Below, one piece after another: positions 25,052-62,824 of a stretch of 64,000 nt of DNA. The position numbers and the translations under genes are program-made. The stretch is taken from IMG/VR virus record IMGVR_UViG_3300047321_000238, positions 48,297 to 112,296 of that record. The stretch is one strand, 5' to 3'. The DNA comes from a virus. Position 1 is the stretch's first letter. The number at the start of each line of letters is the position of its first letter. The notes beneath the pieces were generated by a model. That model saw nothing but the letters and a program-made list of their open reading frames with translations. It did not search any database and had not been told where the DNA came from.

Positions 25052-25054
25052 TTT

Positions 25055-34308: not shown

Positions 34309-34309
34309 G

Positions 34310-35072: not shown

Positions 35073-35336
35073 ATGGATTCAAATAAATTTAGTAAAATAT
35101 TATTAGAAAAAAACGATAAAGATTATGGCTTATGCCCACCACCTATAAATGCTCAAGAAGGATTAAATATCTTAATTGAGCATTTTTTAGGAGAAGATTG
35201 GTTTGTAACAATGCCAATGTGTCAAGAACAGGTAAATACAGCAGCCATTTATACAATATTAAATAAATATCAAAAAAAAGAATCATTAATCGAAATCGTT
35301 AAGAACATGATAATAAGTAGAGGAAAAATGATATAA
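35073..35336 (+). CDS. hypothetical protein, 87 aa
   Basis: Track ORF. Confidence 0.45.
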   Translation: MDSNKFSKILLEKNDKDYGLCPPPINAQEGLNILIEHFLGEDWFVTMPMCQEQVNTAAIYTILNKYQKKESLIEIVKNMIISRGKMI

Positions 35337-38190: not shown

Positions 38191-38409
38191 ATGGATTTGT
38201 ATATAAACATAATAAAAGCTCAGTTAGATAACATAATACAATCTAATAAACATTATGTCGCAGCTAAGGGCGATAAAGGTAAGAAACAGTCAGCTTTAGT
38301 ACTGGCTACTAATATATGCAAACTAGAAAAAATTATAGAAGAATCATTAAAAGAGATTGAAAAAGCAGGAGTAGATGTAGATAGAGTAAGAATGAGGTTA
38401 GATTTATGA
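38191..38409 (+). CDS. hypothetical protein, 72 aa
   Basis: Track ORF with AAGGGTGA RBS. Confidence 0.45.
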   Translation: MDLYINIIKAQLDNIIQSNKHYVAAKGDKGKKQSALVLATNICKLEKIIEESLKEIEKAGVDVDRVRMRLDL

Positions 38410-40359: not shown

Positions 40360-41928
40360 ATGAAAAGATTTAAATTTACAAAAACAGCGAGGATTTTATT
40401 AGTAATACTAGCTTTAGCTATAATAGGTGTGTTAGGTTGGAAAACTGGAGCAGCTAAAAAAGTAGTAACATTTGCAAAGAACGATGTATCTTCAGTATTT
40501 AGTAAAAATGATAGTACTGATGAAATGTATGCAAAAGCAGAAGCAATTAAAAAAGAAGATGGAGCTATTAATATATCATTAGATGAATGGGTTGGTTGGA
40601 AACCTATTATAGATGCTAACGGTGGTTTACAAACTGCTAAAGGAAGTATCTTAGATAAAAAAGGAATTAAATTAAACATTTCAGTAATTAATGATTATAC
40701 TCAATCAAGTAATGCTTTAATCAAAGGTGATCTTAATGCCGCTGGTTATACAGTAAATAGATATGCTTTTCTTTATGACAAATTTAAATCAGCTAATGTT
40801 GAAACTAATATGGGTATCATAATTGATAACTCCAATGGTGGTAACGGAATTATAGCTAAAAAAGGTATTAATAGTTTAAGAGATTTAATAGGTAAGAAGA
40901 TTGGTATTCCAAGATTCTCTGAATGTCAAGCAATGGTAGAATTCTTAATCCAAAAATCAGATTTAACAGCTGATGAAGCTACAAAATTAAGAGCAGGATT
41001 CGTTCCATTTGACTCTCCAGATGATACAGCTAAAGCATTCTATGCTGGAGAATTAGATGCAGCATCAACTTGGCAACCATATCTAACACAAGCAACATCT
41101 ACAGTAGATGCACATATATTGTTCTCTACAAAAGATGCTCCAAACTTAATTATGGATGGTCTTGTGTTTAGAAAAGATTTCGCAGATAAGAATAAAGAAA
41201 CTATCGAAAAATTATTAGAAGGTATTTTAGAAGCACAAGCAATATATTCTACAGATGCAAAAGCTATATCTCAATCTTTCCCAATGTTTGCAACTCAAAC
41301 AGATAAAGAAACTTTAGATATGACTGGTGATTCACAACCAACTAATAGTGCAAGTATGTTAAATTATATGGATAAAAACGGAGCTGCTGTCAACTTATTC
41401 AGAGATATGGCTAACATATGGTCTGGATTAGGAGAAAAATCAGATCCAGCAAATGCAGCAGTTGCATTTGATAACACTTATATTAAAGATGTTGCACCTA
41501 AATATACTGATGCTAAGGTAGCAAAGCCAACATTTACTGCAGAACAAAAACAAACTGCACAATCTCAAGATAATAAACAAGCTTTATTAAGTCAAAAATT
41601 ATCTATTAGTTTTGATGTTGGTAGTGCAAGTATATCTTCAGATAGTTATGCATCATTAAAAGAATTCTTTAACACAGCGAATATATTAAACGGTACTGTT
41701 ATCCAAATTGAGGGTAACACAGATAATACTGGAGATGCAACAGCTAACCAAGCATTATCTGAAAAGAGAGCACAAAGTATTGCAAAATACTTACAAGCTC
41801 AAGGTTTAGATGCAAGTAGATTCGTAGTTATTGGTAATGGACCTAATAAACCAGTTGCAGATAATAATTCTGCCGAAGGTCAAGCTGCTAATAGAAGAAC
41901 AGATATGTACTTCAAAGTAGTTAAATAA
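40360..41928 (+). CDS. membrane-anchored substrate-binding-like protein with C-terminal OmpA/MotB peptidoglycan-binding domain
   Basis: N-terminal TM or signal segment. C-terminal GNTDNTGDATANQALSEKRAQSIAKYL...GNGPNKPVADNNSAEGQAANRRTDM matches the OmpA-C pattern. Confidence 0.6.
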   Translation: MKRFKFTKTARILLVILALAIIGVLGWKTGAAKKVVTFAKNDVSSVFSKNDSTDEMYAKAEAIKKEDGAINISLDEWVGWKPIIDANGGLQTAKGSILDKKGIKLNISVINDYTQSSNALIKGDLNAAGYTVNRYAFLYDKFKSANVETNMGIIIDNSNGGNGIIAKKGINSLRDLIGKKIGIPRFSECQAMVEFLIQKSDLTADEATKLRAGFVPFDSPDDTAKAFYAGELDAASTWQPYLTQATSTVDAHILFSTKDAPNLIMDGLVFRKDFADKNKETIEKLLEGILEAQAIYSTDAKAISQSFPMFATQTDKETLDMTGDSQPTNSASMLNYMDKNGAAVNLFRDMANIWSGLGEKSDPANAAVAFDNTYIKDVAPKYTDAKVAKPTFTAEQKQTAQSQDNKQALLSQKLSISFDVGSASISSDSYASLKEFFNTANILNGTVIQIEGNTDNTGDATANQALSEKRAQSIAKYLQAQGLDASRFVVIGNGPNKPVADNNSAEGQAANRRTDMYFKVVK

Positions 41929-45728: not shown

Positions 45729-45893
45729 ATGAAAAGATTAATTGATTTTTTTGTTGGAGCAGGTATCCTGTTTATGATTAGTTATTCTGCATTTGAATGG
45801 AAGAGTCCAATATTAGTAATGGCTTTCTCATTAATCTTTGGAGTAAGAGGTTATTGGGAAGGATATTCAAAAGGAATGAATAATAGAAAATGA
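45729..45893 (+). CDS. small membrane protein, 54 aa
   Basis: AGGAGG RBS. Not in track. ATGA overlap with the next gene. Confidence 0.4.
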   Translation: MKRLIDFFVGAGILFMISYSAFEWKSPILVMAFSLIFGVRGYWEGYSKGMNNRK

Positions 45894-46312
45894 ATTTAGA
45901 ATGTAGTTCTAAGGGTGATACTGATTATTCCGCTCTATTTGCAAAAGTAGACGGGGTATCCATTGAACATAGATATCAGTTATCTAAACGATTTCTATTT
46001 AATCAATGCATAGTTCACCCTGAGACATATAAACAAGCAAAGTATTGGCAAAGAAGAAATGAGTACTTCTTATTAGATTTTGTAGTAGACTCACATATAT
46101 ACTCATTAGAATACCTTAGTATGTTTTATAACAGTCTATGGTATAAATACTTAATCAAGAATTCTAAGCTTATAAAGAACTTAGAGAAGTATGACACATT
46201 CACTGACTGCTTTAAAAACAGTAACACAATCAATAGTCAATGTGATATAATTGCTTTAGTAGCAAACAAAGGCATTGATGAATTAAAAAGACAAAGTGGA
46301 ATATTTATATAA
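45890..46312 (+). CDS. hypothetical protein, 140 aa
   Basis: Track ORF. Confidence 0.5.
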   Translation: MNLECSSKGDTDYSALFAKVDGVSIEHRYQLSKRFLFNQCIVHPETYKQAKYWQRRNEYFLLDFVVDSHIYSLEYLSMFYNSLWYKYLIKNSKLIKNLEKYDTFTDCFKNSNTINSQCDIIALVANKGIDELKRQSGIFI

Positions 46313-49797: not shown

Positions 49798-51228
49798 ATG
49801 TTAAAAGATATTAGAAAAAATCCAATTAAGTTAACTGATTGCTATAACTTATCACATGAGGAATTAAAATGTAATACAGACTTTGAAGTTTCTCATATGT
49901 ATAATAGAGCAGACGGAATGTTATTATATGGCTTTAAAGAAATTGCATTAGGTATTCTTAGTATAAAGATTACAGAAGAAATGGTTGAAGATGCAGCAGT
50001 TGATGCTGAAGAATTAAACTTAACTTTCCCTAAAGATTTATGGATGAGAGTAGTTACAGAATGTAGAGGATATGTTCCATTAGAAGTTCAATCAGTTCCA
50101 GAAGGAACATGGTGCCCTAAAGGAACTCCATTTGCTCAAGTAAGAAATACCGTAGAAGGTTTCGGAGAAATGGTTACATGGTTTGAAGGCGTGTTTATGA
50201 TGGCGTATTTCCCATCTACATGTGCAACTAGAGCATTTGAAATGAGAAACTATTTAGAAGAAAAGAAAGAACAATACGGATACGATGATAGCTTTCTATG
50301 GAGATTTCATAGTTTTGGATTCAGAGGACATAAAAGCTTGGAAGATGCGTACTTCGCAGGAACTGCATGGTCAACATTCTTATTAGGAACAGATGATTTC
50401 CATATAAGACAACACATGTCAGAAGATACTGTTATGGGAAGTATTGCAGCGTTAGCTCATAAAGTTACGCAACAATATGATAATGAATATGATTGTTTCA
50501 TTCGTTCAATAGATTATGCAGCTGCAAGCGGTAAGAATATCGTAGCTTTAGTTATAGATACTTACAATGCATATAGAGTTATTCAAGAATATGTGTTAAA
50601 ATTAGCTGAGTATGCTAAAGGAAAAGGAGTTCATATTGTATTTAGACCAGATAGTGGAGACATTTTTGGACAAGCAATGGCTATATATACAAGAGTTTCA
50701 ACTGCAGGTTATAAAAATGTAAGTGTAATAATTGGAGAAGGTATGAGTTTTAATAATGCTAAATCAATGGATAAAAAATTTGAGTTAATGGGAGTGCCAT
50801 TAACATTTATTGCTTATGGTATAGGAGCAGGATTCTATAAAGATATAGAAAGAGATACTTTAGGATGGGCAATGAAGACTGGTTATTCTAATGGAGCTCC
50901 AAGAATGAAAGTAGTTAAGTCGGATCCATTTAAGCAATCAATACCTGGGATTGTAGATTTAATGTACGATGAAGATGATTTAATGACAGTATATATAGAA
51001 AAAGAAGATAATGCTGCTGATTCAATATATGAATGTATATATAGATATGATCTTGATCAAAATACAACACCTTCTATGAAAGACTTATCTTATATTCCTG
51101 CACAAGCTATTAAGGATAGAGCATACAATACTACAGGATATAGAGTTGGAGAAAAAATACAAGAAAGAATAATCATATCTAATGAAATTAAAGAACTTAT
51201 AAATGTAATAACAAAAAAATATGAATAA
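49798..51228 (+). CDS. nadV: nicotinamide phosphoribosyltransferase (NadV/NAMPT family)
   Basis: Blocks EVQSVPEGTWCPKGTPF, FHSFGFRGHKS...GTDDFH, FRPDSGD, IIGEGM, IAYGIGAG align with the NAMPT conserved regions (EIKAVPEG, HDFGYRG, RPDSG, IQGDG, IAFGSGGG). Confidence 0.8.
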   Translation: MLKDIRKNPIKLTDCYNLSHEELKCNTDFEVSHMYNRADGMLLYGFKEIALGILSIKITEEMVEDAAVDAEELNLTFPKDLWMRVVTECRGYVPLEVQSVPEGTWCPKGTPFAQVRNTVEGFGEMVTWFEGVFMMAYFPSTCATRAFEMRNYLEEKKEQYGYDDSFLWRFHSFGFRGHKSLEDAYFAGTAWSTFLLGTDDFHIRQHMSEDTVMGSIAALAHKVTQQYDNEYDCFIRSIDYAAASGKNIVALVIDTYNAYRVIQEYVLKLAEYAKGKGVHIVFRPDSGDIFGQAMAIYTRVSTAGYKNVSVIIGEGMSFNNAKSMDKKFELMGVPLTFIAYGIGAGFYKDIERDTLGWAMKTGYSNGAPRMKVVKSDPFKQSIPGIVDLMYDEDDLMTVYIEKEDNAADSIYECIYRYDLDQNTTPSMKDLSYIPAQAIKDRAYNTTGYRVGEKIQERIIISNEIKELINVITKKYE

Positions 51229-51949
51229 AACAGGAGATAAAACAATGGACATATATTTAATCTGTGAAAATAACAAAGACGTTGAAGATTACTTAACGGT
51301 TGGTAAAGAATATAAAGTAATAAGCATGTTTCCTAAAACTGGACTAATTCTAGTAAAAAGCGATACAGGATTAGTTGAACATGTAAAAGAAAGTAGATTC
51401 AAAGTAAGAAAGGATGATAGTATGAAAACATGTTATAAACCATTTATTATCGAGATAAACGTAGAAGGTAAAGAAGCTTCAGGACATATATCATATGTAG
51501 ATGAAAATTTACCAACAATGGATTCAATGAATGAATTCTTAAATATACCATCACCATTTGGAATAGATTTAAAATTAACAAAAACAGGTAGAGGTACTAG
51601 AGTATTCTTCTTTGATAAAGATGGATCAGATAAAGCTTTAGCTAACAATATGGAAGCTTTAGAGTTTGCTTATTTAATTAAGAAGACAATAGTATTGTAT
51701 AATATATTGCTACAAAACAAAGAATATGTAGTAAAGACAGTTTATGATGTACAATTTCAACCTGAAGGAAAACTATATACATTCAGAAGTACTGATAGCC
51801 CAATAATTGGACAACTTGTAGTATGCAATAGTTGTAATGGTAAAGATTATGGTATGGTAGTAGCAATTAAAGAAGAATCAGAACATGAATATAATTCAAG
51901 AGCATATTGTACAACATCTAATATTCTGTCACGAAGAGCACCATTTTAA
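51221..51949 (+). CDS. hypothetical protein, 242 aa
   Basis: Track ORF. Confidence 0.5.
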   Translation: MNKTGDKTMDIYLICENNKDVEDYLTVGKEYKVISMFPKTGLILVKSDTGLVEHVKESRFKVRKDDSMKTCYKPFIIEINVEGKEASGHISYVDENLPTMDSMNEFLNIPSPFGIDLKLTKTGRGTRVFFFDKDGSDKALANNMEALEFAYLIKKTIVLYNILLQNKEYVVKTVYDVQFQPEGKLYTFRSTDSPIIGQLVVCNSCNGKDYGMVVAIKEESEHEYNSRAYCTTSNILSRRAPF

Positions 51950-51964
51950 TTTAAATAGAATAGC

Positions 51965-51995
51965 TGGAGACTTAAAACCTCTGGCTTTTTTATAA
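51965..51995 (+). terminator. putative rho-independent terminator
   Basis: GCUGGAGACUUAAAACCUCUGGC (7-bp stem with G-U pairs) followed by UUUUUUAU. Confidence 0.4.
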
Positions 51996-52025
51996 AATAA
52001 ATAGATGAATAGGAGTGAATGTAAA

Positions 52026-52328
52026 ATGAATAAAAAGAAAAAATTTAGAGAAAACATAATAGTAAGAGCACAGGATTGTGGCAAACATATAACAGAGACA
52101 GGCGATACTTTAAGAACAACAGCGAAATTATTTGGTTGTTCAAAATCAACAGTACACAAAGACATAAATGATAGATTATTATTCATCAATAAAAGATTGT
52201 ATAATAAAGCTAGAAAGGTACTAGAAAAGAATTTAGCTGAGAGAAATTTAAGAGGAGGATTAGCTACTAAGAATAAATATGCTAATTCAGGCAAAGACAA
52301 TAACATATTAGATAAAAGCAAAAGCTAA
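52026..52328 (+). CDS. spoIIID: SpoIIID-like sporulation transcriptional regulator
   Basis: AKLFGCSKSTVHKDINDRL and RNLRGGLATKNKY match B. subtilis SpoIIID (AKEFGVSKSTVHKDLTERL...RHLRGGEATKLKY) along the whole length. Start after AGGAGTG. Confidence 0.75.
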   Translation: MNKKKKFRENIIVRAQDCGKHITETGDTLRTTAKLFGCSKSTVHKDINDRLLFINKRLYNKARKVLEKNLAERNLRGGLATKNKYANSGKDNNILDKSKS

Positions 52329-52654
52329 TGGAACTATTGGCATACGTAAGGAAAATTTGGTTAAGAAAACATTCTAAAGGAAAGTGGGAGACTAAAGATG
52401 GATCAGAACAGTATGTTGAAGAACTTACTGATGACCATCTAATGAGGATCCCACATTTCATTTGGAAACAATATCGTAGCTATTCAAAAACAATGATTTC
52501 AGATGTGATCAAAGAAGAAATAGAAGAAAGAAATATGTATATTGACTATGATAACGAATGTAAAGTAAGACGTAATCATCCAGCTCTTAAAGCAATTTCC
52601 TCTAAATCTAATGTCGCTAAAAAGAAAACACATAATAAAATATTTTATAAATAA
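52328..52654 (+). CDS. hypothetical protein, 108 aa
   Basis: Track ORF. TAATG overlap with the upstream gene. Confidence 0.5.
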   Translation: MELLAYVRKIWLRKHSKGKWETKDGSEQYVEELTDDHLMRIPHFIWKQYRSYSKTMISDVIKEEIEERNMYIDYDNECKVRRNHPALKAISSKSNVAKKKTHNKIFYK

Positions 52655-52675
52655 GAAATTAAATGAGGAAGCAAT

Positions 52676-53224
52676 ATGACAAAAGAAGAGTTTAAAGCGA
52701 TGATAATAGAAAACTATATAAAAGGGAAAAAAATAGTTTTTGTTAACATTGGAACAGAAAAATATATAGGAGATAGTTTTGCACCATTATTAGGTTCTAT
52801 GCTACAATGTAAACTAGATATTATTAAGATATATGGAACATTAGATGAAACAATTAATGGCAGAAACATGATAGAAGAATTAGAACATATTAATAAGAAA
52901 TATAAGAATGATTTTATAATAGGAGTTGACGCAGCGTTTTCTGATGATTACGATAATTGTAATGAAGATTTTATAATACGTAAAGAATCTTTTAAGCCAG
53001 GCGAAGGAGTTGGTAAAAACCATCTACCACACATTGGAAATGCATGTATTAAATTTTGTATCAGAAATGACGAAGAAGATCATTTTGATTCATTAAAAAA
53101 ACCAAACATCAAAGAAATATATAATAGAACAAAGAAAGCAGCAGACTTCATATTTGAAATAGATGAAGAACTAAAAGCGTTGGAGGTGCAATATGAAGAC
53201 AGAGATAGTCATTACACTGAGTAA
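52676..53224 (+). CDS. YyaC-like putative sporulation protease (DUF1256/GPR-like)
   Basis: VFVNIGTEKYIGDSFAPLLGSML parallels the YyaC signature CIGTDRSTGDSLGPLVG. Confidence 0.55.
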   Translation: MTKEEFKAMIIENYIKGKKIVFVNIGTEKYIGDSFAPLLGSMLQCKLDIIKIYGTLDETINGRNMIEELEHINKKYKNDFIIGVDAAFSDDYDNCNEDFIIRKESFKPGEGVGKNHLPHIGNACIKFCIRNDEEDHFDSLKKPNIKEIYNRTKKAADFIFEIDEELKALEVQYEDRDSHYTE

Positions 53225-53396
53225 AGATGAATATGATCAAAAAATAGCAGAGCTTGAAGCATTAATAGCTGATCTTGATGTGCAGTATAATTTTATATTA
53301 AATCACACAAACGATAGTGAAATCATACATGCTTTAATAAATATCAAGAAGGCTTTTATTAAGATGCGTGAAGAATTAATTATTTATGAAATTTAA
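53193..53396 (+). CDS. hypothetical protein, 67 aa
   Basis: Track ORF. Overlaps the previous gene by 32 nt. Confidence 0.4.
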   Translation: MKTEIVITLSKDEYDQKIAELEALIADLDVQYNFILNHTNDSEIIHALINIKKAFIKMREELIIYEI

Positions 53397-53763
53397 AGTA
53401 ATAGTAGCTGGAGGTAGACTTTTTGATGACTATGAGCTATTAAAAGAATGTTTGGACATGTTACTTACTTTATACGTAATGTACGGGTATGAAATAGTTA
53501 TAGTATCTGGCACAGCAAAAGGTGCAGATACACTAGGTGAAAGATATGCTAAAGAAAGAGGCTACGAAATTATACGAATGCCTGCAGACTGGAGTATCGG
53601 TAAAAGTGCTGGTTATAGACGCAATGCGGATATGGCTGACATAGCTGATGCTTCAGTTTGTTTTTGGTCAGGTTCTAAAGGAACGGGCCATATGATAGAT
53701 TTATCAAAAAGTAAAGGATTAGATTATAGAATAATAGAGTACGAGGAGGAAGAGTATGAATAG
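53386..53763 (+). CDS. SLOG/DUF2493 (DprA-like Rossmann) family protein
   Basis: IVSGTAKGADTLGERYA...ADWSIGKSAGYRRNADMADIADASVCFWSGSKGTGHMI fits the SLOG nucleotide-binding pattern. Confidence 0.5.
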   Translation: MKFKVIVAGGRLFDDYELLKECLDMLLTLYVMYGYEIVIVSGTAKGADTLGERYAKERGYEIIRMPADWSIGKSAGYRRNADMADIADASVCFWSGSKGTGHMIDLSKSKGLDYRIIEYEEEEYE

Positions 53764-53974
53764 CATGGATATATATAGCGAAGAAGGAACTAAAGTAAGA
53801 TTTAGAAATAAAGGTGGATATGATAGTGAACCAAAAAATGCAGTTAAAGCAAGATTAGTTGAAGGAGAAATATATACTGTAAATTTTACTAATGTTGGTG
53901 GTTGGTCAAGTGACGTTATATTAAAAGAATTTCCAGGTAGAAGATTTAATACTGTAATGTTTGAGGAGGTATAA
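53756..53974 (+). CDS. hypothetical protein, 72 aa
   Basis: Track ORF. Confidence 0.45.
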   Translation: MNSMDIYSEEGTKVRFRNKGGYDSEPKNAVKARLVEGEIYTVNFTNVGGWSSDVILKEFPGRRFNTVMFEEV

Positions 53975-53975
53975 T

Positions 53976-54266
53976 ATGCAATATGAATTATCTGATGAAG
54001 AAAAACTAGAAGTAGTAAAAAAAAGATTAAATGCTCTTAATTTAAATGTAACCAGAAGTGGATCTAATTTAACTTTATTTAACATGGACAATGGAGAAAT
54101 CAATCTAAGTATCTTTGATGAAGTAAACGATAGAGCTTATGCTATGTCATTAAATGATGAAGCTTTAGATGAAATGTATAAATATTTAAAACAAAGACAT
54201 GAATTAAAAAAAGAATTAGATTACTTAGAAAAACCTAGAGTAACAAGAAAAAGAGGACCTTTTTAA
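53976..54266 (+). CDS. hypothetical protein, 96 aa
   Basis: ATG after GAGGAGG. Track start is 53961. Confidence 0.5.
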   Translation: MQYELSDEEKLEVVKKRLNALNLNVTRSGSNLTLFNMDNGEINLSIFDEVNDRAYAMSLNDEALDEMYKYLKQRHELKKELDYLEKPRVTRKRGPF

Positions 54267-54292
54267 ATAAAATAATTATGGGGGAAAATAAA

Positions 54293-54760
54293 ATGAATCA
54301 CTTGATTGTATATTTAGATGAAAACAAAAATATGATAAATGAGATACATGATAGTGCAGCAATAAGCCTATCAATAATACACGCAAATCTAATAGCATAT
54401 AGGAATAATAGACAAGTCTTAAATGTTAAGATGTTTAATGCAAAAGAACTTATACTTAAAGCAATTAAAGAAGAAAAAATAGATACTGTAATAAACACGA
54501 TTATAGCGTATAATGAAGATAATAAGTATATATTAAACAAGGTAGCAGATTTAGCTGTTAATGATGGAATAATATTTAAACAAGAAGAATTCGAAAATAG
54601 CGTGATACAATTTTTAGAACTTGATGAGTATCTTATAGCTTTGTATGGAATATATAATGCGTATGGAATTATTGATTTCAAAAGTATCCATGTTAAGAAT
54701 AAAAATTTAGTAATAATAATGGACAAGGAGATAGATAATGGAGAGAAAAGAGCTGTTTAG
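54293..54760 (+). CDS. hypothetical protein, 155 aa
   Basis: ATG after GGGGGAAAA. Track start is 54278. Confidence 0.5.
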   Translation: MNHLIVYLDENKNMINEIHDSAAISLSIIHANLIAYRNNRQVLNVKMFNAKELILKAIKEEKIDTVINTIIAYNEDNKYILNKVADLAVNDGIIFKQEEFENSVIQFLELDEYLIALYGIYNAYGIIDFKSIHVKNKNLVIIMDKEIDNGEKRAV

Positions 54761-55499
54761 AGCATTGTTTGGTTCAGATAATTATGATCTTTCAATGAAA
54801 GCAAATGAAAAGTTAAAGATACCAGCTAGCGATAAAGACTATAAGGTATTCTTAGTGCCATCATTTGATGACCTATATACAAAAAAGGAATATTCTTTTG
54901 ATGAAATTACCGAGACTGTAGATCTTGTATATAGTGATATAAGAAAGTTAGAAAGAGTTTCTACAAATCTTAATTGGTTAGAAATATTCTTTAGTAAAGA
55001 GATAATATATAATCCAACTTTATCTATAAGAGAAAGACAATTATTAAATTTAATATTTAATATGAGACATGATATAGTACGTATGAATTTAGCATATTTC
55101 TTTGATTCATGTATGGGAATGCATATAGAACGTGTAAAAAGATTACACAAATATTCTGCTTCATGTTTATATATGAAAGACTTATACGGATATAATATCA
55201 AAGAAGCATTACATGCTTATAGGGTGCCAGATACTGCAATTAGATTTGCAGATGGTGGATTTAAAGATTTAGGTGCTGCGTTGAGATATGAAGGTGAATC
55301 AAAAGACTTTATGATGAAGATCAGACACGGAGAGATATCTGAAGAAGTAATGATTAAAACATTAGATGGTATAAAAAATTATGCTAATGAAAAATATCAA
55401 GAAGCATATCATGCATTTGCTAAAAATGAAGAAGTTGAAGTAAAATTAAAAGCAATAATATATGAGTTAGTTAAAATAAATGTAGTTAAGGGGGAATAA
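54738..55499 (+). CDS. hypothetical protein, 253 aa
   Basis: Track ORF. Confidence 0.55.
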   Translation: MERKELFRALFGSDNYDLSMKANEKLKIPASDKDYKVFLVPSFDDLYTKKEYSFDEITETVDLVYSDIRKLERVSTNLNWLEIFFSKEIIYNPTLSIRERQLLNLIFNMRHDIVRMNLAYFFDSCMGMHIERVKRLHKYSASCLYMKDLYGYNIKEALHAYRVPDTAIRFADGGFKDLGAALRYEGESKDFMMKIRHGEISEEVMIKTLDGIKNYANEKYQEAYHAFAKNEEVEVKLKAIIYELVKINVVKGE

Positions 55500-55501
55500 C
55501 A

Positions 55502-56068
55502 TTGAGAGAATGTAATATATGCAAAAAGGAATTAAAAGAATCAGAGTACCAATTATGTGAAGGTTGTAAGACTGTTGGCAATGAATTTTTTAAAGTAAAA
55601 GGATCTGTAAGTAAACCTACAAAGAAATTAAATAGAGAAGAATATTACTTAGGAATAGCTAAAGCTGTTTCAGTAGGTGGTACATGCCTTAGACGTAACT
55701 ATGGTGCCATTATAGTAAACAACGATGAGATTATATCTACTGGTTATACAGGAGCTCCTAGAGGTAACGCTAACTGTTGTGACTTAGGAGTTTGTGAAAG
55801 GCAAAGATTAAAGATTGCTCCTGGAGAAAGATATGAATTATGCAAATCAGTTCATGCTGAACAAAATGCAATAATATCAGCATCTAGACAAGAAATGCTT
55901 GGAGCTACATTATATCTATATGGATATGATAAAGAAAAGGATTGTGAAATACTTGTAGCTCAACCGTGTGATTTATGTAGTAGAATGATTATAAATGCTG
56001 GAATATCTAAAGTAGTAGCAGCAAATTATATATGGTATCCATCAGCTAATAGAAAGTATATAGAATAG
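55502..56068 (+). CDS. dCMP/cytidine deaminase-family protein with N-terminal Zn-ribbon
   Basis: TTG start after AAGGGGGAA. HAEQNAI and PCDLC zinc-ligand motifs. Confidence 0.75.
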   Translation: MRECNICKKELKESEYQLCEGCKTVGNEFFKVKGSVSKPTKKLNREEYYLGIAKAVSVGGTCLRRNYGAIIVNNDEIISTGYTGAPRGNANCCDLGVCERQRLKIAPGERYELCKSVHAEQNAIISASRQEMLGATLYLYGYDKEKDCEILVAQPCDLCSRMIINAGISKVVAANYIWYPSANRKYIE

Positions 56069-56078
56069 AGGTGATTGC

Positions 56079-56327
56079 ATGGATATAGAAATGAGAAGTC
56101 CTTATCTTGAAGTAATTGAAATTAAAAGAAAGATTACTGCAGAATTATTTAAAGATTTAAAAGTCGGACATAAAATTAGATTATCTCAAATAATCGAAAA
56201 AGGAAGATCAGGATATGTAGCAAAAATAACAGTTACTAACGATGAAAACGGTAAAAAAATAACTAAAACTATGCATGAATTGTGCAATATTTTAGATAGT
56301 TTTAGATTAGTATCAGTAAATAGATAG
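56079..56327 (+). CDS. hypothetical protein, 82 aa
   Basis: Track ORF with GAGGTGA RBS. Confidence 0.45.
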   Translation: MDIEMRSPYLEVIEIKRKITAELFKDLKVGHKIRLSQIIEKGRSGYVAKITVTNDENGKKITKTMHELCNILDSFRLVSVNR

Positions 56328-56339
56328 GAGATGTTTATA

Positions 56340-56510
56340 ATGAGTAATAAATTTCAAAGAGCTGTGAGTAAAGAAGTATTAAGAAGAGTGAGTAAAGAAC
56401 TTGATGTTGAAGGTTATGGTGTTAATAAGATTAGATCAATAATTAATCTTGATATTGGAAAAATTCAAAGAGAAGTTCGTAAAGAAATTAGAAAAGGTCC
56501 AAGGTTATAA
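56340..56510 (+). CDS. small basic protein, 56 aa (MSNKFQR N-terminus)
   Basis: AGGAGATG upstream. Shares its N-terminus with 58180..58368. Not in track. Confidence 0.4.
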   Translation: MSNKFQRAVSKEVLRRVSKELDVEGYGVNKIRSIINLDIGKIQREVRKEIRKGPRL

Positions 56511-56530
56511 AATATTAGGGGGAAATAATA

Positions 56531-56824
56531 TTGAACAAATATCAAAATAATATTAAGAAATTAACATTAAAAAAAATGGCAGATATATATAAAAATTTTA
56601 TTAAAGAGCATGGAACTTATAGAGAAATGTTAAATAGTGTTACTACTGAAAAAGAATATGTATTTCATATTGATATGAAAAATCCAGTAGTAAGTAAATA
56701 TTGTGACGCTGCTGATATTGCATTTAAATCTTTTGAAGTAACAAGAAAAGAAGTTCGTAAAGGTCTAAAAGATAACAAAAAGGCATTAAATTTATTAAAA
56801 AAAATGGAGCCTGTAAATTATTAA
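56531..56824 (+). CDS. hypothetical basic protein, 97 aa
   Basis: TTG start after GGGGGAAA. EVRKGLKDN motif related to 56340..56510. Confidence 0.45.
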   Translation: MNKYQNNIKKLTLKKMADIYKNFIKEHGTYREMLNSVTTEKEYVFHIDMKNPVVSKYCDAADIAFKSFEVTRKEVRKGLKDNKKALNLLKKMEPVNY

Positions 56825-56845
56825 TAAATAAGACATTAGGGGGAA

Positions 56846-57535
56846 ATGATATTGAATAAAATAAATGATTTTTTTAAAGGATGGACAAAGCTAGATTTTG
56901 CTTGGCTATTAATAGCTAATGCAATCATGTTAGGATTATCTATCAGAAATGGTGATACAGTAGTATCTATGATATGTGCTGTAACAGGAATAGTTAGTGT
57001 TATATTTGCAAGTAAGCAAATGACAGCTAATTATGTAGTAGGACTTATAAATGTAGCGTTATATGCTTATCTTTCATATCAAGCCAAATTATATGGAGAT
57101 TTTCAATTAAATGCTTTCTTCTATGTACCAATGCAATTCATAGGATATTATATGTGGAATAAAGCTAAAAACAAATCATCAGAACATAAAGTTGAAGCTA
57201 AAAGACTAACTGGAGAGCAAGCTATATTTATATCAGTAGGAACAATAGGAACTATATTGGTATACGCTAAAATATTAGATATGCTTAGAGGAAATATAAC
57301 TTTAATCGATTCAGCCTCTACAGTACTATCAGTGATAGCTATGATATTAATGGTTAAACAATATACTGAACAATGGTATATGTGGGTTCTTGTTAATATA
57401 GTATCTATAGTAATGTGGGTAGTATCTTTATCACAAGGCACAGGAGATTTGGCTACATTATTAATGTGGGTAGTTTTCTTAATTAATTCTATATTTGGAT
57501 TAGTTAATTGGAGAAAGGCTAGTAAGAAGGCTTAA
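56846..57535 (+). CDS. pnuC: nicotinamide riboside transporter PnuC
   Basis: Seven TM helices. LSVIAMILMVKQYTEQWYMWVLVNIVSIV aligns closely with PnuC (LSIVAMILMTRKYVENWLLWVIINVISVV). GLINVALYAYL matches GLINVTLFG. Confidence 0.8.
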   Translation: MILNKINDFFKGWTKLDFAWLLIANAIMLGLSIRNGDTVVSMICAVTGIVSVIFASKQMTANYVVGLINVALYAYLSYQAKLYGDFQLNAFFYVPMQFIGYYMWNKAKNKSSEHKVEAKRLTGEQAIFISVGTIGTILVYAKILDMLRGNITLIDSASTVLSVIAMILMVKQYTEQWYMWVLVNIVSIVMWVVSLSQGTGDLATLLMWVVFLINSIFGLVNWRKASKKA

Positions 57536-57782
57536 ATGATAATTATTAAGATTATAGTAGCTGTCTTTATTGTTTCTTGGATATTAGCTAAGGATTCTGT
57601 AGAGAAATAGGAAGAAGGTTAAATTATGATCAAATTAATAATTGTAATATTTATTGTATTGTATGTAGTAAGTATTATGAATGAATAAGATGGAGCTCTA
57701 ATAGGCTCCTACTTTATATGAGCTATTAATAATATAATGGTTGATATAAAGTATTACGTAATAAAGAAAGGGTGGAGTAATT

Positions 57783-57863
57783 ATGGCATATGAAATTAAG
57801 TGTCTTCATTGTGGACAGGAATATGATGGCCTGGATTATGTTGAAACAGGAGGTATGATATGA
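57783..57863 (+). CDS. micro-ORF, 26 aa, CxxC-containing
   Basis: GGTGGAG RBS. MAYEIKCLHCGQEYDGLDYVETGGMI. Confidence 0.3.
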   Translation: MAYEIKCLHCGQEYDGLDYVETGGMI

Positions 57864-58036
57864 ATAATAAAAATGAGATATATGTTTGTAATGCTAATTG
57901 TCCCGAATTAGATAGTGATAATAGTAAGCACTGTACCTGTACCGTTAAAAATGAAGAAGATAAGTTTAATATGTTAAATAATGAATGTCCATGTGGAAAT
58001 AATTCAAAATGGGCATTAAAAGAAAAGTTACAATAA
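57860..58036 (+). CDS. small Cys-rich protein, 58 aa (8 Cys)
   Basis: AGGAGG RBS. CNANCP, CTC and CPCG motifs. Not in track. Confidence 0.4.
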   Translation: MNNKNEIYVCNANCPELDSDNSKHCTCTVKNEEDKFNMLNNECPCGNNSKWALKEKLQ

Positions 58037-58054
58037 ACATGGAGGAATAAAATT

Positions 58055-58168
58055 ATGAAGCTTGAATTAGCAATATGTAAAGAATGTAAACACAAATCCT
58101 TCTGTAAAAAGAAAAAAGTTCAATGTGAAGAGTATTCAATTTTAATAAGAGCATTAGAAAGCAAATAA
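58055..58168 (+). CDS. small Cys-rich protein, 37 aa
   Basis: GGAGGAATAA RBS. CKECKHKSFC...C. Confidence 0.35.
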   Translation: MKLELAICKECKHKSFCKKKKVQCEEYSILIRALESK

Positions 58169-58179
58169 GGAGGTTTAAT

Positions 58180-58368
58180 ATGTCAAATAAATTTCAAAGA
58201 TTAGCTATTCAAGTGGCTAAAGATGATTCTAAAAAGGAGTATTATATAAATAGAAAGTTTAATATTAGAGAAACTAAGTCTTTAGTATTGGCAGGATTTA
58301 GAGAAGAACTAAGAACATATGAAGATGCAAGAAGATATAAAAATTGGAATAAAAATATAGAATTTTAA
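58180..58368 (+). CDS. small basic protein, 62 aa (MSNKFQR N-terminus)
   Basis: Track ORF with AAGGAGG RBS. Confidence 0.5.
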   Translation: MSNKFQRLAIQVAKDDSKKEYYINRKFNIRETKSLVLAGFREELRTYEDARRYKNWNKNIEF

Positions 58369-58379
58369 GGAGGATTAAT

Positions 58380-58646
58380 ATGGACGAAGATAATAGAGTT
58401 TATTACAAGATTTTTAAGTCTCCAGGGATAAACAATAAATTAACTATTATTACTATGCAATGGTTTGACGAAAATCAATATGAACAAAAGAGATTTTTTA
58501 AAGATAAGCAAGGAAATCAATTAGAATTCGAAGACAAAGAGAAAGCAGTTGAATGGTTATTAGACAATATTAAAGAAGAACTTATAGATGAAGAGTATCT
58601 AAAATGCAAAATAATGAAAGACGAAGATTATTTATTAAGTAAATAA
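58380..58646 (+). CDS. hypothetical protein, 88 aa
   Basis: Track ORF with AAGGAGGA RBS. Confidence 0.5.
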   Translation: MDEDNRVYYKIFKSPGINNKLTIITMQWFDENQYEQKRFFKDKQGNQLEFEDKEKAVEWLLDNIKEELIDEEYLKCKIMKDEDYLLSK

Positions 58647-58673
58647 ATTATATTAAAGATGGGGGAATAAGAA

Positions 58674-59552
58674 ATGAAAGTTCAAAGTTTAAGTATTAGT
58701 GTACCAGCAAAGTGTACAAATAATTGCTATTTTTGTGTAGCACACATGCACAGGGAGGACTATTGTAATCAAATAGAAAACAATACAAGATTTATCGATT
58801 TATATACTAAGGATTATAAAAAGAGATTAATGTTTGCAAGAGACAATGGATGCAATACAGTTATGTTAACTGGAAATGGTGAACCATTATTAAATAAAAG
58901 ATTCTTAGAAAGATTTGCATTATGGAATGAATCATTGCCAAAGCCTTTTGTATGGATTGAAATTCAAACTTCAGGAACATTGTTAGATGATGAATATCTA
59001 AGATACTTAAGAAATACAGTAGGAGTTAATACTATTAGTTTATCATTATCGAATATTTTTGATTCAGATAAAAATGCAGAATATAATAGAACTCAAGCAG
59101 GAGTTAAAATTGATATCGATAAATTATGTGATGAAATAAAGAAATATGATTTCAATTTAAGATTATCACTTAATATGACAGACTATTATAATGACACTGA
59201 AATTAAGAGTATTTTTGAAAGAGCAAAACAATTAGGAGCAGATCAAATCACATTTAGAAAGCTATATACTAGTAGTATAAATGGAGAGAATGAACAAAAT
59301 AAGTGGATTGAAAAGCATGCTTGTGCGTCTTCTAAGTATGAAGAATTAACACAGTATGTTAAAAAGAATAGTACACCTTTAGAAGTATTACCTTTTGGAG
59401 CAATCAAGTATTCATTAGGCTCTTTTGCAGTAGTAGTTGATGATGATTCAATGAGTACTCAAATAAAAGATGATACAGTTAAATATTTAATACTTAGAGA
59501 AAATTGCAAATTATATTCAAAATGGGAAGATAAAAATTCATTAATATTCTAG
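58674..59552 (+). CDS. radical SAM superfamily enzyme
   Basis: CTNNCYFC (CxxxCxxC) cluster at residues 14-21. GNGEPLL glycine-rich SAM-binding motif. No SPASM-type C-terminal Cys cluster. Confidence 0.65.
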   Translation: MKVQSLSISVPAKCTNNCYFCVAHMHREDYCNQIENNTRFIDLYTKDYKKRLMFARDNGCNTVMLTGNGEPLLNKRFLERFALWNESLPKPFVWIEIQTSGTLLDDEYLRYLRNTVGVNTISLSLSNIFDSDKNAEYNRTQAGVKIDIDKLCDEIKKYDFNLRLSLNMTDYYNDTEIKSIFERAKQLGADQITFRKLYTSSINGENEQNKWIEKHACASSKYEELTQYVKKNSTPLEVLPFGAIKYSLGSFAVVVDDDSMSTQIKDDTVKYLILRENCKLYSKWEDKNSLIF

Positions 59553-59564
59553 GAGGAATAATAA

Positions 59565-60005
59565 ATGAAAAGAGTACAATTTCTAAAAACAGAAGAAGAT
59601 TTTAAGACATTAAAAATTGGAGATAATATCTTATTAAAATATAAAGATGGAAAGATATTTATGTTAAAAATAACTAAAATAGAGGAAAATCAATTAATTG
59701 TAAAAGAAGATGTTAGTTTTCTTCAAGAAACATACATAAATATTTCTTCTGTGATTAATAACGGATTAAATAAATATTTAGAATACATCATTGTAGAAAG
59801 AAATATAAAAAGTCCATATAGTACTCAACTTGATGGACTTATAAAGAGTATGAAAGAGCTTAGAGTAAGGTTAATGAAAGCTTATTATAGTAAGCAATTT
59901 TGTGATAATAAAACAATATTACTTGATTTAAAGGCGATGTCAAAAGGAATTGCAACAATGATGAATGATAAGCTATTATATAACATATTAAAAGGAGCTA
60001 AATGA
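59565..60005 (+). CDS. hypothetical protein, 146 aa
   Basis: Track ORF with AGGAGGAA RBS. Confidence 0.5.
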   Translation: MKRVQFLKTEEDFKTLKIGDNILLKYKDGKIFMLKITKIEENQLIVKEDVSFLQETYINISSVINNGLNKYLEYIIVERNIKSPYSTQLDGLIKSMKELRVRLMKAYYSKQFCDNKTILLDLKAMSKGIATMMNDKLLYNILKGAK

Positions 60006-60006
60006 T

Positions 60007-60177
60007 ATGGTAGATAATAAAAAAGATAATGCATTTATTGAAAAAATTGCTAAAGAAATTGATGAAAATAAAATACACATAGGAATTGAAAATATATTAG
60101 AACTAGTTTATGATATGGGAGTTAAAGAAGGAAAAGCATTGGTAGTAAAAAATGCTGTTGAATTCATAAGTAAGTAA
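60007..60177 (+). CDS. hypothetical protein, 56 aa
   Basis: Not in track. Starts 1 nt after the upstream stop. Confidence 0.3.
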   Translation: MVDNKKDNAFIEKIAKEIDENKIHIGIENILELVYDMGVKEGKALVVKNAVEFISK

Positions 60178-60198
60178 ATAATCTTGAGGGGGATTAAA

Positions 60199-61257
60199 AT
60201 GAATAAAATATCAGACATGCCAAAGAAAGGTGTATGGTTTGCTAAAGCATTACCACCACATAGAGGTCATTTAAGTACAATATTACAAGCTGCTACACAA
60301 GTACAACAATTAGATGTAATTGTATCAGAGCATGAAGAAGGAAATGGTAAACTGTGTAGAAATGTCGGAATACCATATATGCCAGGAGCAAAAAGAGTAC
60401 AATGGCTTAGTCAGGAATTAATGGACATGCCTCATATTACCGTTAAGTTACTTAATGAAAATAATATGCCTGTATATCCTAATGGATGGGATATGTGGAC
60501 TCAAGAATTACAAAAAGTTGCAGGAGAAAAAATAGATATGTTTTTCTGCGGTAAAAAAGATATAGATGTATATGGACCAAAATTAAAGAGTTATTTTCCA
60601 GGAGTTAAAGTTACAGCGTATGATACAGATACTTGTTACTTTAATATATCAGCTACAGAGATCAGAAGTAATCCAATTAAGCATTGGGACTATATATTAG
60701 GACCAGCAAGACCATTCTTTGCTAAGAAAATATTAATAGCTGGAACTGAAAGCACAGGTAAGACTACTTTAACTAAAACTTTAGCTAAGATGTATCATAC
60801 ATCATGGAGTGAAGAAGTAGGAAGATATTATGCAACGCAATATCTAGGAGGTAATGAAAATTACTTTACTGATGAAGACTTTACAAGAATAGCTCATTTG
60901 CAAGTTGAACAAGATCATCAAGCATTAAGAAACTGTAATAGAGTTTGTTTCTTTGATACAGACGCTACAGCAACAGATTACTTCAGTCAATTATATATGG
61001 GACATAGCAATAGCATAGTTAGAAGCTATATAGATCCTGATAAGTATGACATAGTGTTCATGTTGAAGCCTGATGTTGAATGGGTAGATGATGGCATGAG
61101 ATTAAATGGATCACAAGAGCAAAGAATTAAACTTCATAATAAATTAAAAGATATGTATGATAATTTAGGATTTAAAGTAGTTGAAGTAGGTGGAACATAC
61201 CAAGAAAGACTTAAATTTATATTATCAAAAATAGATGAAATGATTGGGGGAAAATAA
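60199..61257 (+). CDS. nadR: NadR-like bifunctional NMN adenylyltransferase / ribosylnicotinamide kinase (no HTH domain)
   Basis: HxGH-type motif PPHRGH in the N-terminal nucleotidyltransferase half. Walker A GTESTGKTTL in the C-terminal kinase half, as in NadR GGESSGKS. Start after GAGGGGGA. Confidence 0.75.
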   Translation: MNKISDMPKKGVWFAKALPPHRGHLSTILQAATQVQQLDVIVSEHEEGNGKLCRNVGIPYMPGAKRVQWLSQELMDMPHITVKLLNENNMPVYPNGWDMWTQELQKVAGEKIDMFFCGKKDIDVYGPKLKSYFPGVKVTAYDTDTCYFNISATEIRSNPIKHWDYILGPARPFFAKKILIAGTESTGKTTLTKTLAKMYHTSWSEEVGRYYATQYLGGNENYFTDEDFTRIAHLQVEQDHQALRNCNRVCFFDTDATATDYFSQLYMGHSNSIVRSYIDPDKYDIVFMLKPDVEWVDDGMRLNGSQEQRIKLHNKLKDMYDNLGFKVVEVGGTYQERLKFILSKIDEMIGGK

Positions 61258-61836
61258 ATGAGAAAGCTATTAAGCGTAGATAAACAAACGGATAATAAAT
61301 TCTTAAACATGTTTGTAGCAAACTATGAAGAAGACGGTGAAGAGTCTAAATACTTTATTGCATCAAGAAAAAAGAATGCAGAAGATTTAGATTGTATGAC
61401 TGGTAAGATGGTAGCTGATGCAGTAATAATCGTTCCTGTATATACTAATGGAGATATATTATTTATTAAGCAATTTAGAAAACCTATAAATGATTATATA
61501 TATGAATTTCCAGCAGGATTAATCGATGCAGGTGAAACTAGTAAACAAGCTGCAATAAGAGAGCTTCATGAAGAAACTGGATTAAGTGTAGTAAGTGCTA
61601 GAGAATTAATCAAGCCTACGTATACATCAGTTGGAATGTCAGATGAAGCTGTAGGAATATATATAGCTGAAGTTCAAGGAGAACTATCTCAAGAATATCA
61701 AGAAAAAAGCGAGGATATAAATTTTGAAATAGTAAAAATAGATGACTTAGCAAAGTTCATTAAAGAAAACAAAGTAGCAATGCAAGCATCAATACTTTCT
61801 TTATTCTTATATAGCATAGAAAAAGGAGAATATTAA
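61258..61836 (+). CDS. Nudix hydrolase (ADP-ribose pyrophosphatase-like)
   Basis: Nudix box GLIDAGETSKQAAIRELHEETGL. Start overlaps the NadR stop (TAAATG). Confidence 0.75.
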   Translation: MRKLLSVDKQTDNKFLNMFVANYEEDGEESKYFIASRKKNAEDLDCMTGKMVADAVIIVPVYTNGDILFIKQFRKPINDYIYEFPAGLIDAGETSKQAAIRELHEETGLSVVSARELIKPTYTSVGMSDEAVGIYIAEVQGELSQEYQEKSEDINFEIVKIDDLAKFIKENKVAMQASILSLFLYSIEKGEY

Positions 61837-62042
61837 TGGATATAGAAAATATTCCTGATGATATTTTTTATACTGAATATGAGAGAAGAAAATCAGAAAG
61901 AAAATCAAACCAAGAAGCCAAAGAAAAACAAGAAGAGCGACAAAGAATTAGATGGTTAGAATCTAATGGAGGAACGTGTGGTAATGATCAATGTGCTACA
62001 TCTTATTGTAGAATAAATTGTTATGGTTGTGATGGTTTTTAA
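61836..62042 (+). CDS. small protein with C-terminal Cys cluster, 68 aa
   Basis: Track ORF. CGNDQC...CRINCYGC. Confidence 0.45.
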   Translation: MDIENIPDDIFYTEYERRKSERKSNQEAKEKQEERQRIRWLESNGGTCGNDQCATSYCRINCYGCDGF

Positions 62043-62060
62043 TTTAAGGAGTGATATACA

Positions 62061-62366
62061 ATGTCATCTAATGTAATAAAATTTAATTTAAAAAAAGAAG
62101 TAGAATTGGATAAAGAATTTCAACCAATAAATGAAGAAAAAATATCTCTTTATGCTAATTGTGATGCAGTATCTTCATGGGTAGCCTATGTTGAAAATTA
62201 TGAACAAGCAAAAGAACTTATTTTACCAGAAAATATAGATGATTTATTTAATAGTTCATTAAGTTGTGATGAATTAGAAATATTTGTTGCAGTTTTAAAT
62301 AATCATTCAGAATATTATTTTTTTAATGAAGTATTTGATTATGAAGATTACAAAAATAAGGAGTGA
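62061..62366 (+). CDS. hypothetical acidic protein, 101 aa
   Basis: Track ORF with AAGGAGTGA RBS. Confidence 0.5.
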   Translation: MSSNVIKFNLKKEVELDKEFQPINEEKISLYANCDAVSSWVAYVENYEQAKELILPENIDDLFNSSLSCDELEIFVAVLNNHSEYYFFNEVFDYEDYKNKE

Positions 62367-62371
62367 TGTAA

Positions 62372-62824
62372 ATGGAAATAAAAGAAGTGAAAGGCAATTT
62401 ATTAGAAGCAAGTGAAGATCTAATATGTCATCAAGTAAACTGCCAAGGTAGAATGGGTAGTGGAGTAGCTTTAGCTATTAAAGAAAAGTATCCACAAGTA
62501 TATAAGCAATATAAAACTATGTGTAAATTAACGAATCCTTTAGGAGAAGCACAAGCAATCCAAGTATCAGAAAAACAAATAGTAATTAATATGTATGCAC
62601 AAGAATTCTATGGATATGATAAAAAGCAATATACTAGTTACGAAGCGTTTGAGAAGTGTTGTAAGAAGATTCGAGATATTGCAATTCAATTTAACTTAAG
62701 TGTAGCAATGCCATATAAGATTGGTAGTGTACGCGGAGGAGCTGAATGGGACGAGATATACAAGATATTAGTAAAGTATTTTGGACCACTAAGTAAAGTA
62801 AATTTAACGCTGTATAAATTATAA
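62372..62824 (+). CDS. macrodomain protein (DarG/TARG1-like)
   Basis: ICHQVNCQGRMGSGVALAIKEKYP parallels DarG VNTVNCVGVMGKGIALQFKRRYP and TARG1 CISEDCRMGAGIA. Confidence 0.65.
   Translation: MEIKEVKGNLLEASEDLICHQVNCQGRMGSGVALAIKEKYPQVYKQYKTMCKLTNPLGEAQAIQVSEKQIVINMYAQEFYGYDKKQYTSYEAFEKCCKKIRDIAIQFNLSVAMPYKIGSVRGGAEWDEIYKILVKYFGPLSKVNLTLYKL

Follow-up and report, generated by a model that had tools for sequence, protein, structure and literature searches.

NAD+ genes dispersed through part of a jumbo phage genome, with a probable role in rebuilding NAD+

The stretch of DNA analysed here, referred to as the window, is 64,000 nucleotides (64 kb) long and corresponds to positions 48,297 to 112,296 of the IMG/VR virus record IMGVR_UViG_3300047321_000238. 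It is part of the genome of a tailed jumbo phage of ~248 kb, and statements about genes absent from the window cover these 64 kb. An earlier note, made from the letters alone, had described within it five genes for nicotinamide adenine dinucleotide (NAD+) salvage and ADP-ribose processing, coding for NadV, PnuC, a NadR-like enzyme, a Nudix hydrolase and a macrodomain protein. All five open reading frames (ORFs) lie on the + strand where that note had placed them, and profile searches bear out the five family assignments (PF04095, PF04973, AAA_28/PRK08099, PF00293 and PF01661, respectively). The genes are spread over ~13 kb, and the called genes interspersed among them number 23, not ~20 as first counted.

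The four NAD+ genes and the macrodomain gene

NadV (49798..51228, +) is a nicotinamide phosphoribosyltransferase of the Nampt family (PF04095, 52 bits; phrog_448, E = 1e-59) and belongs to a divergent clade. Its matches in the Protein Data Bank (PDB), with E values down to 2e-25, are all Nampt-family enzymes, either NAMPT or Namat deposited under the NAMPT name, and it is predicted to convert nicotinamide and phosphoribosyl pyrophosphate (PRPP) to nicotinamide mononucleotide (NMN). An alignment of 120 members of the clade, at 51-78% identity, was compared with solved Nampts and with one solved Namat. Residues D14, Y16, F173, R176, D199, H221, R283, D285 and G313-E314 of NadV align with human D16, Y18, F193, R196, D219, H247, R311, D313 and G353-D354, and in the 120 clade members these catalytic and binding positions vary little or not at all. 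The published list of NAMPT residues includes the nicotinamide-specifying Asp219 and the catalytic His247 (PMC3665594, PMC7096376); the former is kept in NadV as D199 and the latter as H221. Use of nicotinate through a Ser replacing Asp219 (HSFGFRG as against HDFGYRG) was considered and rejected, because this motif corresponds to human H191-D192-F193 and the true D219 aligns with the invariant D199. Ser at the position of human D192 is a trait of the NadV clade.

None of the 50,697 deposited phage records contains the clade, their NadV proteins being at most 28% identical to that of the window; its members occur in IMG/VR contigs and SPbeta-like Bacillus elements. A chromosomal member (52% identity) is present in Bacillus methanolicus (CP007739.1; locus L006, 8001-10608), where it is followed by genes resembling those for orotidine monophosphate decarboxylase, phosphoribosyl-AMP cyclohydrolase (PRA-CH) and a haloacid dehalogenase (HAD) phosphatase. 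In the window, the stop codon of NadV is overlapped by 8 nt by an orphan ORF of 242 aa (51221-51949, +), a homologue of which also directly follows NadV in the closest relative (L005). This ORF matches no Pfam or PHROG family; it has two close homologues and, among 1.8 billion representatives, 24 remote ones, without annotation.

The second gene (56846..57535, +) encodes a PnuC-type importer of nicotinamide riboside (NR). It scores 158.3 bits with TIGR01528, for which the cutoff is 42.45, and 158 bits with PF04973 (phrog_1880, E = 3e-64); it also gives a full-length match, over residues 8-227, to the NR transporter of N. mucosa (4QTN, E = 1.3e-47). The NadR-like protein (60199..61257, +; an alternative TTG start is present at 60184) is a bifunctional enzyme with an N-terminal NMN adenylyltransferase (NMNAT) domain and a C-terminal ribosylnicotinamide kinase domain (PRK08099, 236.8 bits, cutoff 201; AAA_28, 116 bits, residues 177-337). 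As had been noted earlier, it lacks the regulatory helix-turn-helix (HTH) region of NadR, since the alignment to PRK08099 begins only at model position 62 and spans positions 62-408 of 411. Alignment to H. influenzae NadR reveals the motifs PPHRGH, ISATEIR and GTESTGKT, the NMNAT motifs HxGH and ISxTxxR being intact. The best PDB match is Bas30_86 (9X6F/9X6H, E = 2.7e-61), the enzyme of NAD+ reconstitution pathway 3 (NARP3), and the next is H. influenzae NadR. The predicted reactions lead from NR to NMN and from NMN to NAD+. To other phage NadR-like genes the identity is at most 37%. PnuC and NadR do not form an adjacent two-gene operon: between the end of PnuC (57535) and the start of NadR (60199) lie 2.7 kb with seven called genes. 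One of the seven encodes a radical-SAM protein of 292 aa (58674-59552, +) with weak QueE-like similarity (phrog_2076, E = 1e-7).

The Nudix gene (61258..61836, +) had been thought to overlap NadR, but the two genes abut, the TAA of NadR (61255-61257) being followed directly by the Nudix ATG at 61258. A GGGGGA sequence is located upstream of this ATG, and the Nudix gene is probably translationally coupled to NadR. The protein (PF00293, 62 bits) resembles the ADP-ribose/ADP-sugar pyrophosphatases and possesses an intact Nudix box, GLIDAGETSKQAAIRELHEETGL. Its best PDB matches are the ADP-ribose/ADP-sugar pyrophosphatases NUDT5 and NudF (E = 2e-14), and judging from this similarity its substrate is likely ADP-ribose.

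The last of the five genes (62372..62824, +) encodes a stand-alone macrodomain protein of 150 aa, of the class resembling BT1257, DarG, Poa1p and TARG1 (PF01661, 35 bits; phrog_335, E = 1e-39). The top sequence matches in NCBIfam and the PDB are DarG macrodomains; the protein covers positions 1-147 of the 338-position NCBIfam DarG model, and so is without the C-terminal DarT-binding domain, and its score of 72 bits is well under the model's cutoff of 250. In the profile ranking BT1257 (68 bits) comes ahead of DarG, followed by SCO6735, Poa1p (45 bits) and TARG1. An AlphaFold2 model (pLDDT 93) matched the folds of BT1257, DarG and Poa1p with TM values of 0.90, 0.84 and 0.79-0.85, respectively; TARG1 was also matched. 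The PTKKHW segment of DarG aligns with MYAQEFY (family pattern AQ[DE]xYGYD), in which Gln stands in place of the Lys that we take to be catalytic in the DarG and TARG1 macrodomains. In a 35-sequence alignment (A2) this Gln is invariant, and across 120 members of the macrodomain family its conservation is at least 95%.

A role for the macrodomain as a DarG mimic directed against DarT was attractive, given that DarG is the top match and that a NADAR gene is present in the window, but it is weakened by the absence of the catalytic Lys. No DarT-like gene is evident beside the macrodomain gene, where the neighbouring called genes are without a recorded Pfam family. Homologues are found in 1349 phage records, the nearest in Bacillus phage FADO, where the gene is annotated as ADP-ribose 1''-phosphate phosphatase-related; two genes away is that for a protein of COG3236, the NADAR family. 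Among 25 IMG/VR loci carrying the NadV clade, a macrodomain of this family was found near NadV in only one other locus (L030), and the macrodomain gene of the window lies outside any NARP1 operon. The protein probably processes some ADP-ribose derivative, and its gene looks like a separate accessory gene, loosely tied to the NAD+ set. That it recycles or clears ADP-ribose, as previously proposed, is not established, the DarG/TARG1 Lys being absent and association with the NadV clade being confined to the one further locus.

Gene linkage and the predicted pathway

The strongest evidence for an NAD+ function comes from gene context. The 25 IMG/VR loci were retrieved with the NadV alignment alone; single-protein scans of IMG/VR with PnuC and with NadR gave no relatives. 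In ~20 of the 25 an NMNAT gene directly follows NadV, usually with a Nudix gene next, as in the layout of NAD+ reconstitution pathway 2 (NARP2). Such an order makes sense only if NadV supplies the substrate of the adenylyltransferase, and the product of NadV would therefore be NMN. In an unrelated viral contig (L013) the genes form a contiguous NadV-PnuC-(116 aa)-NadR-Nudix operon which adjoins ribonucleotide reductase genes; a compact four-gene operon of this kind was found in no deposited phage. The closest relative (L005, on a 259-kb contig; NadV 70% identical) carries the NMNAT half of NadR only (179 aa, 60% identity), together with a Nudix gene; no PnuC and no macrodomain lie within 10 kb. 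The window carries both the NR-kinase domain and PnuC, and the L005 locus neither.

Matches to NadV, the NadR-like protein and the macrodomain were obtained in 1877, 446 and 1349, respectively, of the 50,697 phage records. If these genes occurred independently, well under one record with all three would be expected, although this null model is a rough one, large phages tending to accumulate such genes. Because of these frequencies and of the L013 operon, we regard the grouping as more than chance, and four of the five genes (NadV, PnuC, NadR-like and Nudix) are predicted to be functionally linked. No Pfam match to an Adps gene, which resembles that for PRPP synthetase (PRPS), was found, either in the genes called in the window or beside the NadV clade in the loci examined.

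We consider it probable that these four genes, dispersed as they are, constitute a coherent module for NAD+ reconstitution that can be entered by two routes, both leading to NMN, and that the likely pay-off is survival of NAD+-depleting defences. In one route, of the NARP2 type, NadV would join nicotinamide, which defence NADases release, to host PRPP and so form NMN. In the other, of the NARP3 type, PnuC would import NR, which the kinase domain of the NadR-like enzyme would phosphorylate to NMN. A single NadR-type NMNAT domain would then adenylate the NMN from both routes, yielding NAD+; it is predicted to be the only NMNAT available to the NMN made by NadV. The Nudix hydrolase would most likely cut ADP-ribose to AMP and ribose-5-phosphate, which would clear a product of the NADases and send carbon back towards PRPP. 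We liken this role to that of NatV of phage KVP40, in which NMNAT and Nudix are fused; NMNAT-Nudix pairs occur in most relatives of the NadV clade.

The passage from nicotinamide or NR through NMN to NAD+ had been proposed in the earlier note, and as a predicted pathway it follows from the domain content of the proteins. The phage would likely survive Thoeris, DSR, SIR2-HerA, SEFIR and RES-type systems by these means, alongside the direct inhibitors Tad8, NADAR and SLOG. Homologous systems are known to rescue phages from NAD+-depleting defence, both in the case of NARP2 (bioRxiv 10.1101/2024.02.11.579819) and in that of NARP3 (PMC13464706), and aRES defence is also cancelled by NARP2. The counter-defence role suggested earlier for the genes of the window is in keeping with these experiments.

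Predicted anti-defence neighbours and the source phage

The gene set as first described left out genes of the window whose predicted anti-defence roles are more direct. The first encodes a homologue, 87 aa in length, of the type II Thoeris inhibitor Tad8 (35073-35336, +; PF25189, 83 bits, cutoff 27), and is situated between an ABC-permease gene and the gene for a 684-aa DUF8224 protein. Tad3-Tad8 have been described as binders of the TIR or effector proteins of Thoeris (PMC13243611). The second product is a NADAR domain protein of the DarT1-associated type (140 aa; 45890-46312, +; PF22397, 37 bits, cutoff 27; phrog_9995, E = 5e-15), which may reverse or process ADP-ribose adducts. The third is a YAcAr-type SLOG protein (53386-53763, +; PF10686, 60 bits) encoded 2 kb downstream of NadV. 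In about five independent viral lineages (including L009, 8762-9139) a YAcAr SLOG homologue is encoded no more than 10 kb from a member of the NadV clade, and in L031 the SLOG gene (11299-11751) overlaps the NadV stop codon. The SLOG protein may be a sixth member, or functional partner, of the NAD+ set. In view of the predicted functions of these products, an arsenal directed at NAD- or ADP-ribose-based immunity is the best description of the region. A metallo-beta-lactamase (MBL)-fold hydrolase (33299-34075, +) resembles the anti-Pycsar protein Apyc1, the match being partial and, at 35 bits, under the cutoff of 50; a better Apyc1-like gene is present in L005.

The exact NadV protein is present on a 247,883-bp JGI contig, and the same Logan contig carries, just upstream of the window, genes for a large terminase and Cpn10. 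PHROG matches among the window genes are in line with phage identity, and a conserved 684-aa protein of the window is ~60% identical to Bacillus myophage proteins. The G+C content of the window is ~29%. No near-identical deposited phage was found by megablast of the window against phages, and no tRNA genes were found in the window. The host is probably an endospore-forming member of the Bacillota. This assignment is based upon the Bacillus/Paenibacillus affinity of the NadV clade and upon two genes of the window, one encoding a homologue of the transcription factor SpoIIID (52005-52328, +; 96 bits) and the other a sporulation-related DUF1256/YyaC-like protein (52676-53224, +; 113 bits); both are conserved in L005.

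Several other features of the window deserve mention. At least 12 divergent paralogous ORFs of ~105 aa each, with 25-49% pairwise identity and no family annotation, are arranged in tandem at 20304-26070 (+). Parts of an ABC importer are encoded on the phage: a permease (BPD_transp_1; 34274-35071, +), an ATPase (ABC_tran; 38406-39035, +) and an NMT1-like substrate-binding protein of 522 aa with an OmpA-like domain (40360-41928, +). A GGDEF (diguanylate cyclase) domain is present in a small protein (5075-5554, +), according to the precomputed Pfam matches for the source contig, and an ORF of 1672 aa (8928-13946, +) matched no PHROG or Pfam family.

Alternative readings and relation to known systems

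A number of observations weigh against a four-gene module that serves to survive defence. The analysis establishes which genes are present, their families, their conserved catalytic motifs and their surroundings; from homology we infer every enzyme activity, flux and anti-defence role. The genes are dispersed among 23 others, whereas NARP2 and NARP3 are defined by tight operons. NadV is only ~25-28% identical to characterised Nampts, scores 196 against an NCBIfam equivalog cutoff of 405, and has in the segment equivalent to the Namat clamp the sequence GAGFYKDIERD, which exactly matches neither Nampt nor Namat; since the clade is so divergent, its exact specificity stays a prediction. The gene context of the NadV-clade member in B. 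methanolicus hints that in bacteria it may have a different role from NAD salvage. For the Nudix protein, the best NCBIfam models (NudE and ADPRase) all score under their equivalog cutoffs (NudE, 59.8 as against 169). The NadV route would depend on host PRPP, because the window contains no PRPP synthetase gene. Finally, the genes are accounted for just as well by a purely metabolic role, in which they provide NAD+ for phage replication.

According to this metabolic explanation the genes raise NAD+ for the long infection of a jumbo phage regardless of host immunity, and the needs could include nucleotide metabolism, NAD-dependent enzymes and the infection of starving or sporulating cells. Genes for dCMP deaminase and guanylate kinase are indeed among the neighbours in the window, as are those for ribonucleotide reductase at L013, and the phage carries the SpoIIID and YyaC-like sporulation genes. 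In a 2024 study of jumbo phages NAMPT, pnuC, nadR and nadM are interpreted as a system that synthesizes NAD+ independently (PMC11662467), and NARP2 overproduces NAD+ even in cells without a defence system (bioRxiv 10.1101/2024.02.11.579819). We nevertheless think it rather unlikely that metabolism is the whole explanation, since experiments have shown that phages are rescued from NAD+-depleting systems by homologues in NARP2 and NARP3, and dedicated anti-defence genes (Tad8, NADAR) are located in the same region. The metabolic and counter-defence roles are compatible with each other.

Another question is whether NadV is a Nampt at all. Namat is the NARP1 enzyme which uses ADP-ribose (ADPR)-pyrophosphate (bioRxiv 10.1101/2024.02.11.579819), and Pfam is unable to tell it from Nampt. 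A Namat-type NadV would join nicotinamide and ADPR-pyrophosphate to form NAD+ directly, with Adps encoded elsewhere in the genome, of which the gene survey covers 64 kb of ~248 kb. The clamp-equivalent segment of the clade (consensus G-[GAS]-G-F-Y-[NK]-[HYD]-I-x-R-D) is rich in aromatic residues: positions 4-5 are F-Y, and most members have H or Y at position 7. In the Bacillus phages of the Tsamsa/Izhevsk group, moreover, PnuC and NadR are accompanied by a PRPP-synthase-like gene and a phosphoribosyltransferase (PRTase). On the other hand, the segment of NadV does not conform to the Namat signature GSX-phi-X-phi-X-phi-TRD (it reads GSFTYQYNTRD in the solved Namat 9w5x): position 3 is Gly in 120/120 clade members, and position 7 is Asp in the NadV of the window. 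Neither the window nor the surroundings of the NadV clade in any locus examined contain a PRPS-like gene, and an NMNAT, for which Namat would have no need, is almost always next to the NadV clade. A Namat-type reaction is, in our judgement, most doubtful. It is also improbable that NadV represents a third, uncharacterised clade within the Nampt family, with a donor or base specificity unlike that of Nampt and Namat, which forms together with the YAcAr SLOG protein and the 242-aa orphan a distinct, undescribed variant of NAD+ reconstitution.

The five genes could also be unrelated accessory genes which share a variable early region and make up no functional module. Over their 13 kb they are interrupted by 23 other genes; in L005, NadV is retained with an NMNAT-only gene and Nudix but without PnuC or a macrodomain within 10 kb; and the macrodomain is near the NadV clade in a single other locus, L030. 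For the macrodomain alone this explanation is reasonable. As an account of all five genes it is very unlikely, given the compact NadV-PnuC-NadR-Nudix operon in L013, the stop/start junction of NadR and Nudix, the recurrent NadV-NMNAT-Nudix order, and the way in which PnuC and the NR-kinase domain seem to be present or absent together.

The NAD+ reconstitution module that we favour resembles two published systems. NARP3 of Escherichia phage TrudiRoth consists of the PnuC-like Bas30_87 and the HTH-less, NadR-like Bas30_86 (PMC13464706), the same two protein types with the same predicted conversion of NR through NMN to NAD+. Unlike in NARP3, PnuC and NadR are not adjacent in the window, and the phage adds NadV, so that its NadR-like enzyme would serve two routes. 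NARP3 has been called largely restricted to phages of the Enterobacteriaceae (PMC13464706), whereas the host of the phage considered here is a probable spore-former of the Bacillota. NARP2 is composed in KVP40 of the Nampt NadV and the NMNAT-Nudix protein NatV (bioRxiv 10.1101/2024.02.11.579819). The window likewise encodes a Nampt with intact catalytic residues, an NMNAT and a Nudix protein, their activities being predicted ones; in contrast to NARP2, its NMNAT is of the NadR type and not of the NadM/NatV type, its Nudix is a separate gene following NadR, and NadV lies 9 kb from the NMNAT gene.

Among Bacillus phages, those of the Tsamsa/Izhevsk group (PMC7685451; NC_023007, MT254578) also possess dispersed NAD genes and a Nampt-family PRTase. 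The Izhevsk paper (2020) lists PnuC, a NadR-type NMNAT, a PRTase and a PRPP synthase (PMC7685451), and adjacent PnuC and HTH-less NadR genes are annotated in more than 20 deposited phages of the group. They carry the macrodomain family as well, with homologues that are 40-45% identical to the window protein and annotated as Poa1p-like in Izhevsk. The PRTase of these phages is paired with a PRPP-synthase-like gene, giving it the look of NARP1, and the backbone is that of a siphovirus of ~165 kb, whereas in the window the partner is an NMNAT and the phage measures ~248 kb. In a Vibrio jumbo phage the NMNAT, PnuC-like, NadR-like and NadV genes lie within 8 kb. The 2024 jumbo-phage study reported NAMPT in 71/174 and pnuC in 68/174 NAD-jumbo phages (PMC11662467). 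The 2022 survey of viral NAD+/ADP-ribose networks by Iyer, Burroughs and Aravind (PMC9503650) does not name PnuC in its text, a point in which the set in the window differs.

The macrodomain finds its nearest published counterpart in Adpp of NARP1-AP, characterised from Vibrio phage Gary, a stand-alone phage macrodomain with a Poa1p-like fold, in a phage that rebuilds NAD+; Adpp dephosphorylates ADPR-1''-phosphate (ADPR-1''P) and so counters RES-type NADases (bioRxiv 10.64898/2026.01.28.702374). The window protein, which we liken to Adpp by description, is encoded outside a NARP1 operon, and in profile comparison BT1257 and DarG are nearer to it than Poa1p is. By analogy, a role as an ADPR-1''P phosphatase countering RES-type NADases is plausible.

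The earlier interpretation is partly supported, being largely right for four genes and unproven for the macrodomain. Where it called the set unusually complete it overstated the novelty, in view of the PnuC and HTH-less NadR genes of the Bacillus phages, Izhevsk in 2020 among them, and the four genes of the Vibrio phage. The gene types and the strategy are already covered by NARP2 (2024), NARP3 (2026), the 2022 survey, the 2024 jumbo-phage study and the 2020 Izhevsk paper, and the gene set opens no new question. The new points are modest: a divergent NadV clade, an NMNAT shared by two routes, and a recurrent SLOG neighbour. The divergent Nampt clade and its SLOG partner are worth biochemical study. 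If the reading given here is true, phages of spore-formers combine two published strategies of rebuilding NAD+ around one adenylyltransferase, and could draw either on nicotinamide freed by the defence itself or on external NR; genes of the NARP3 type would then extend well past the enterobacterial phages.

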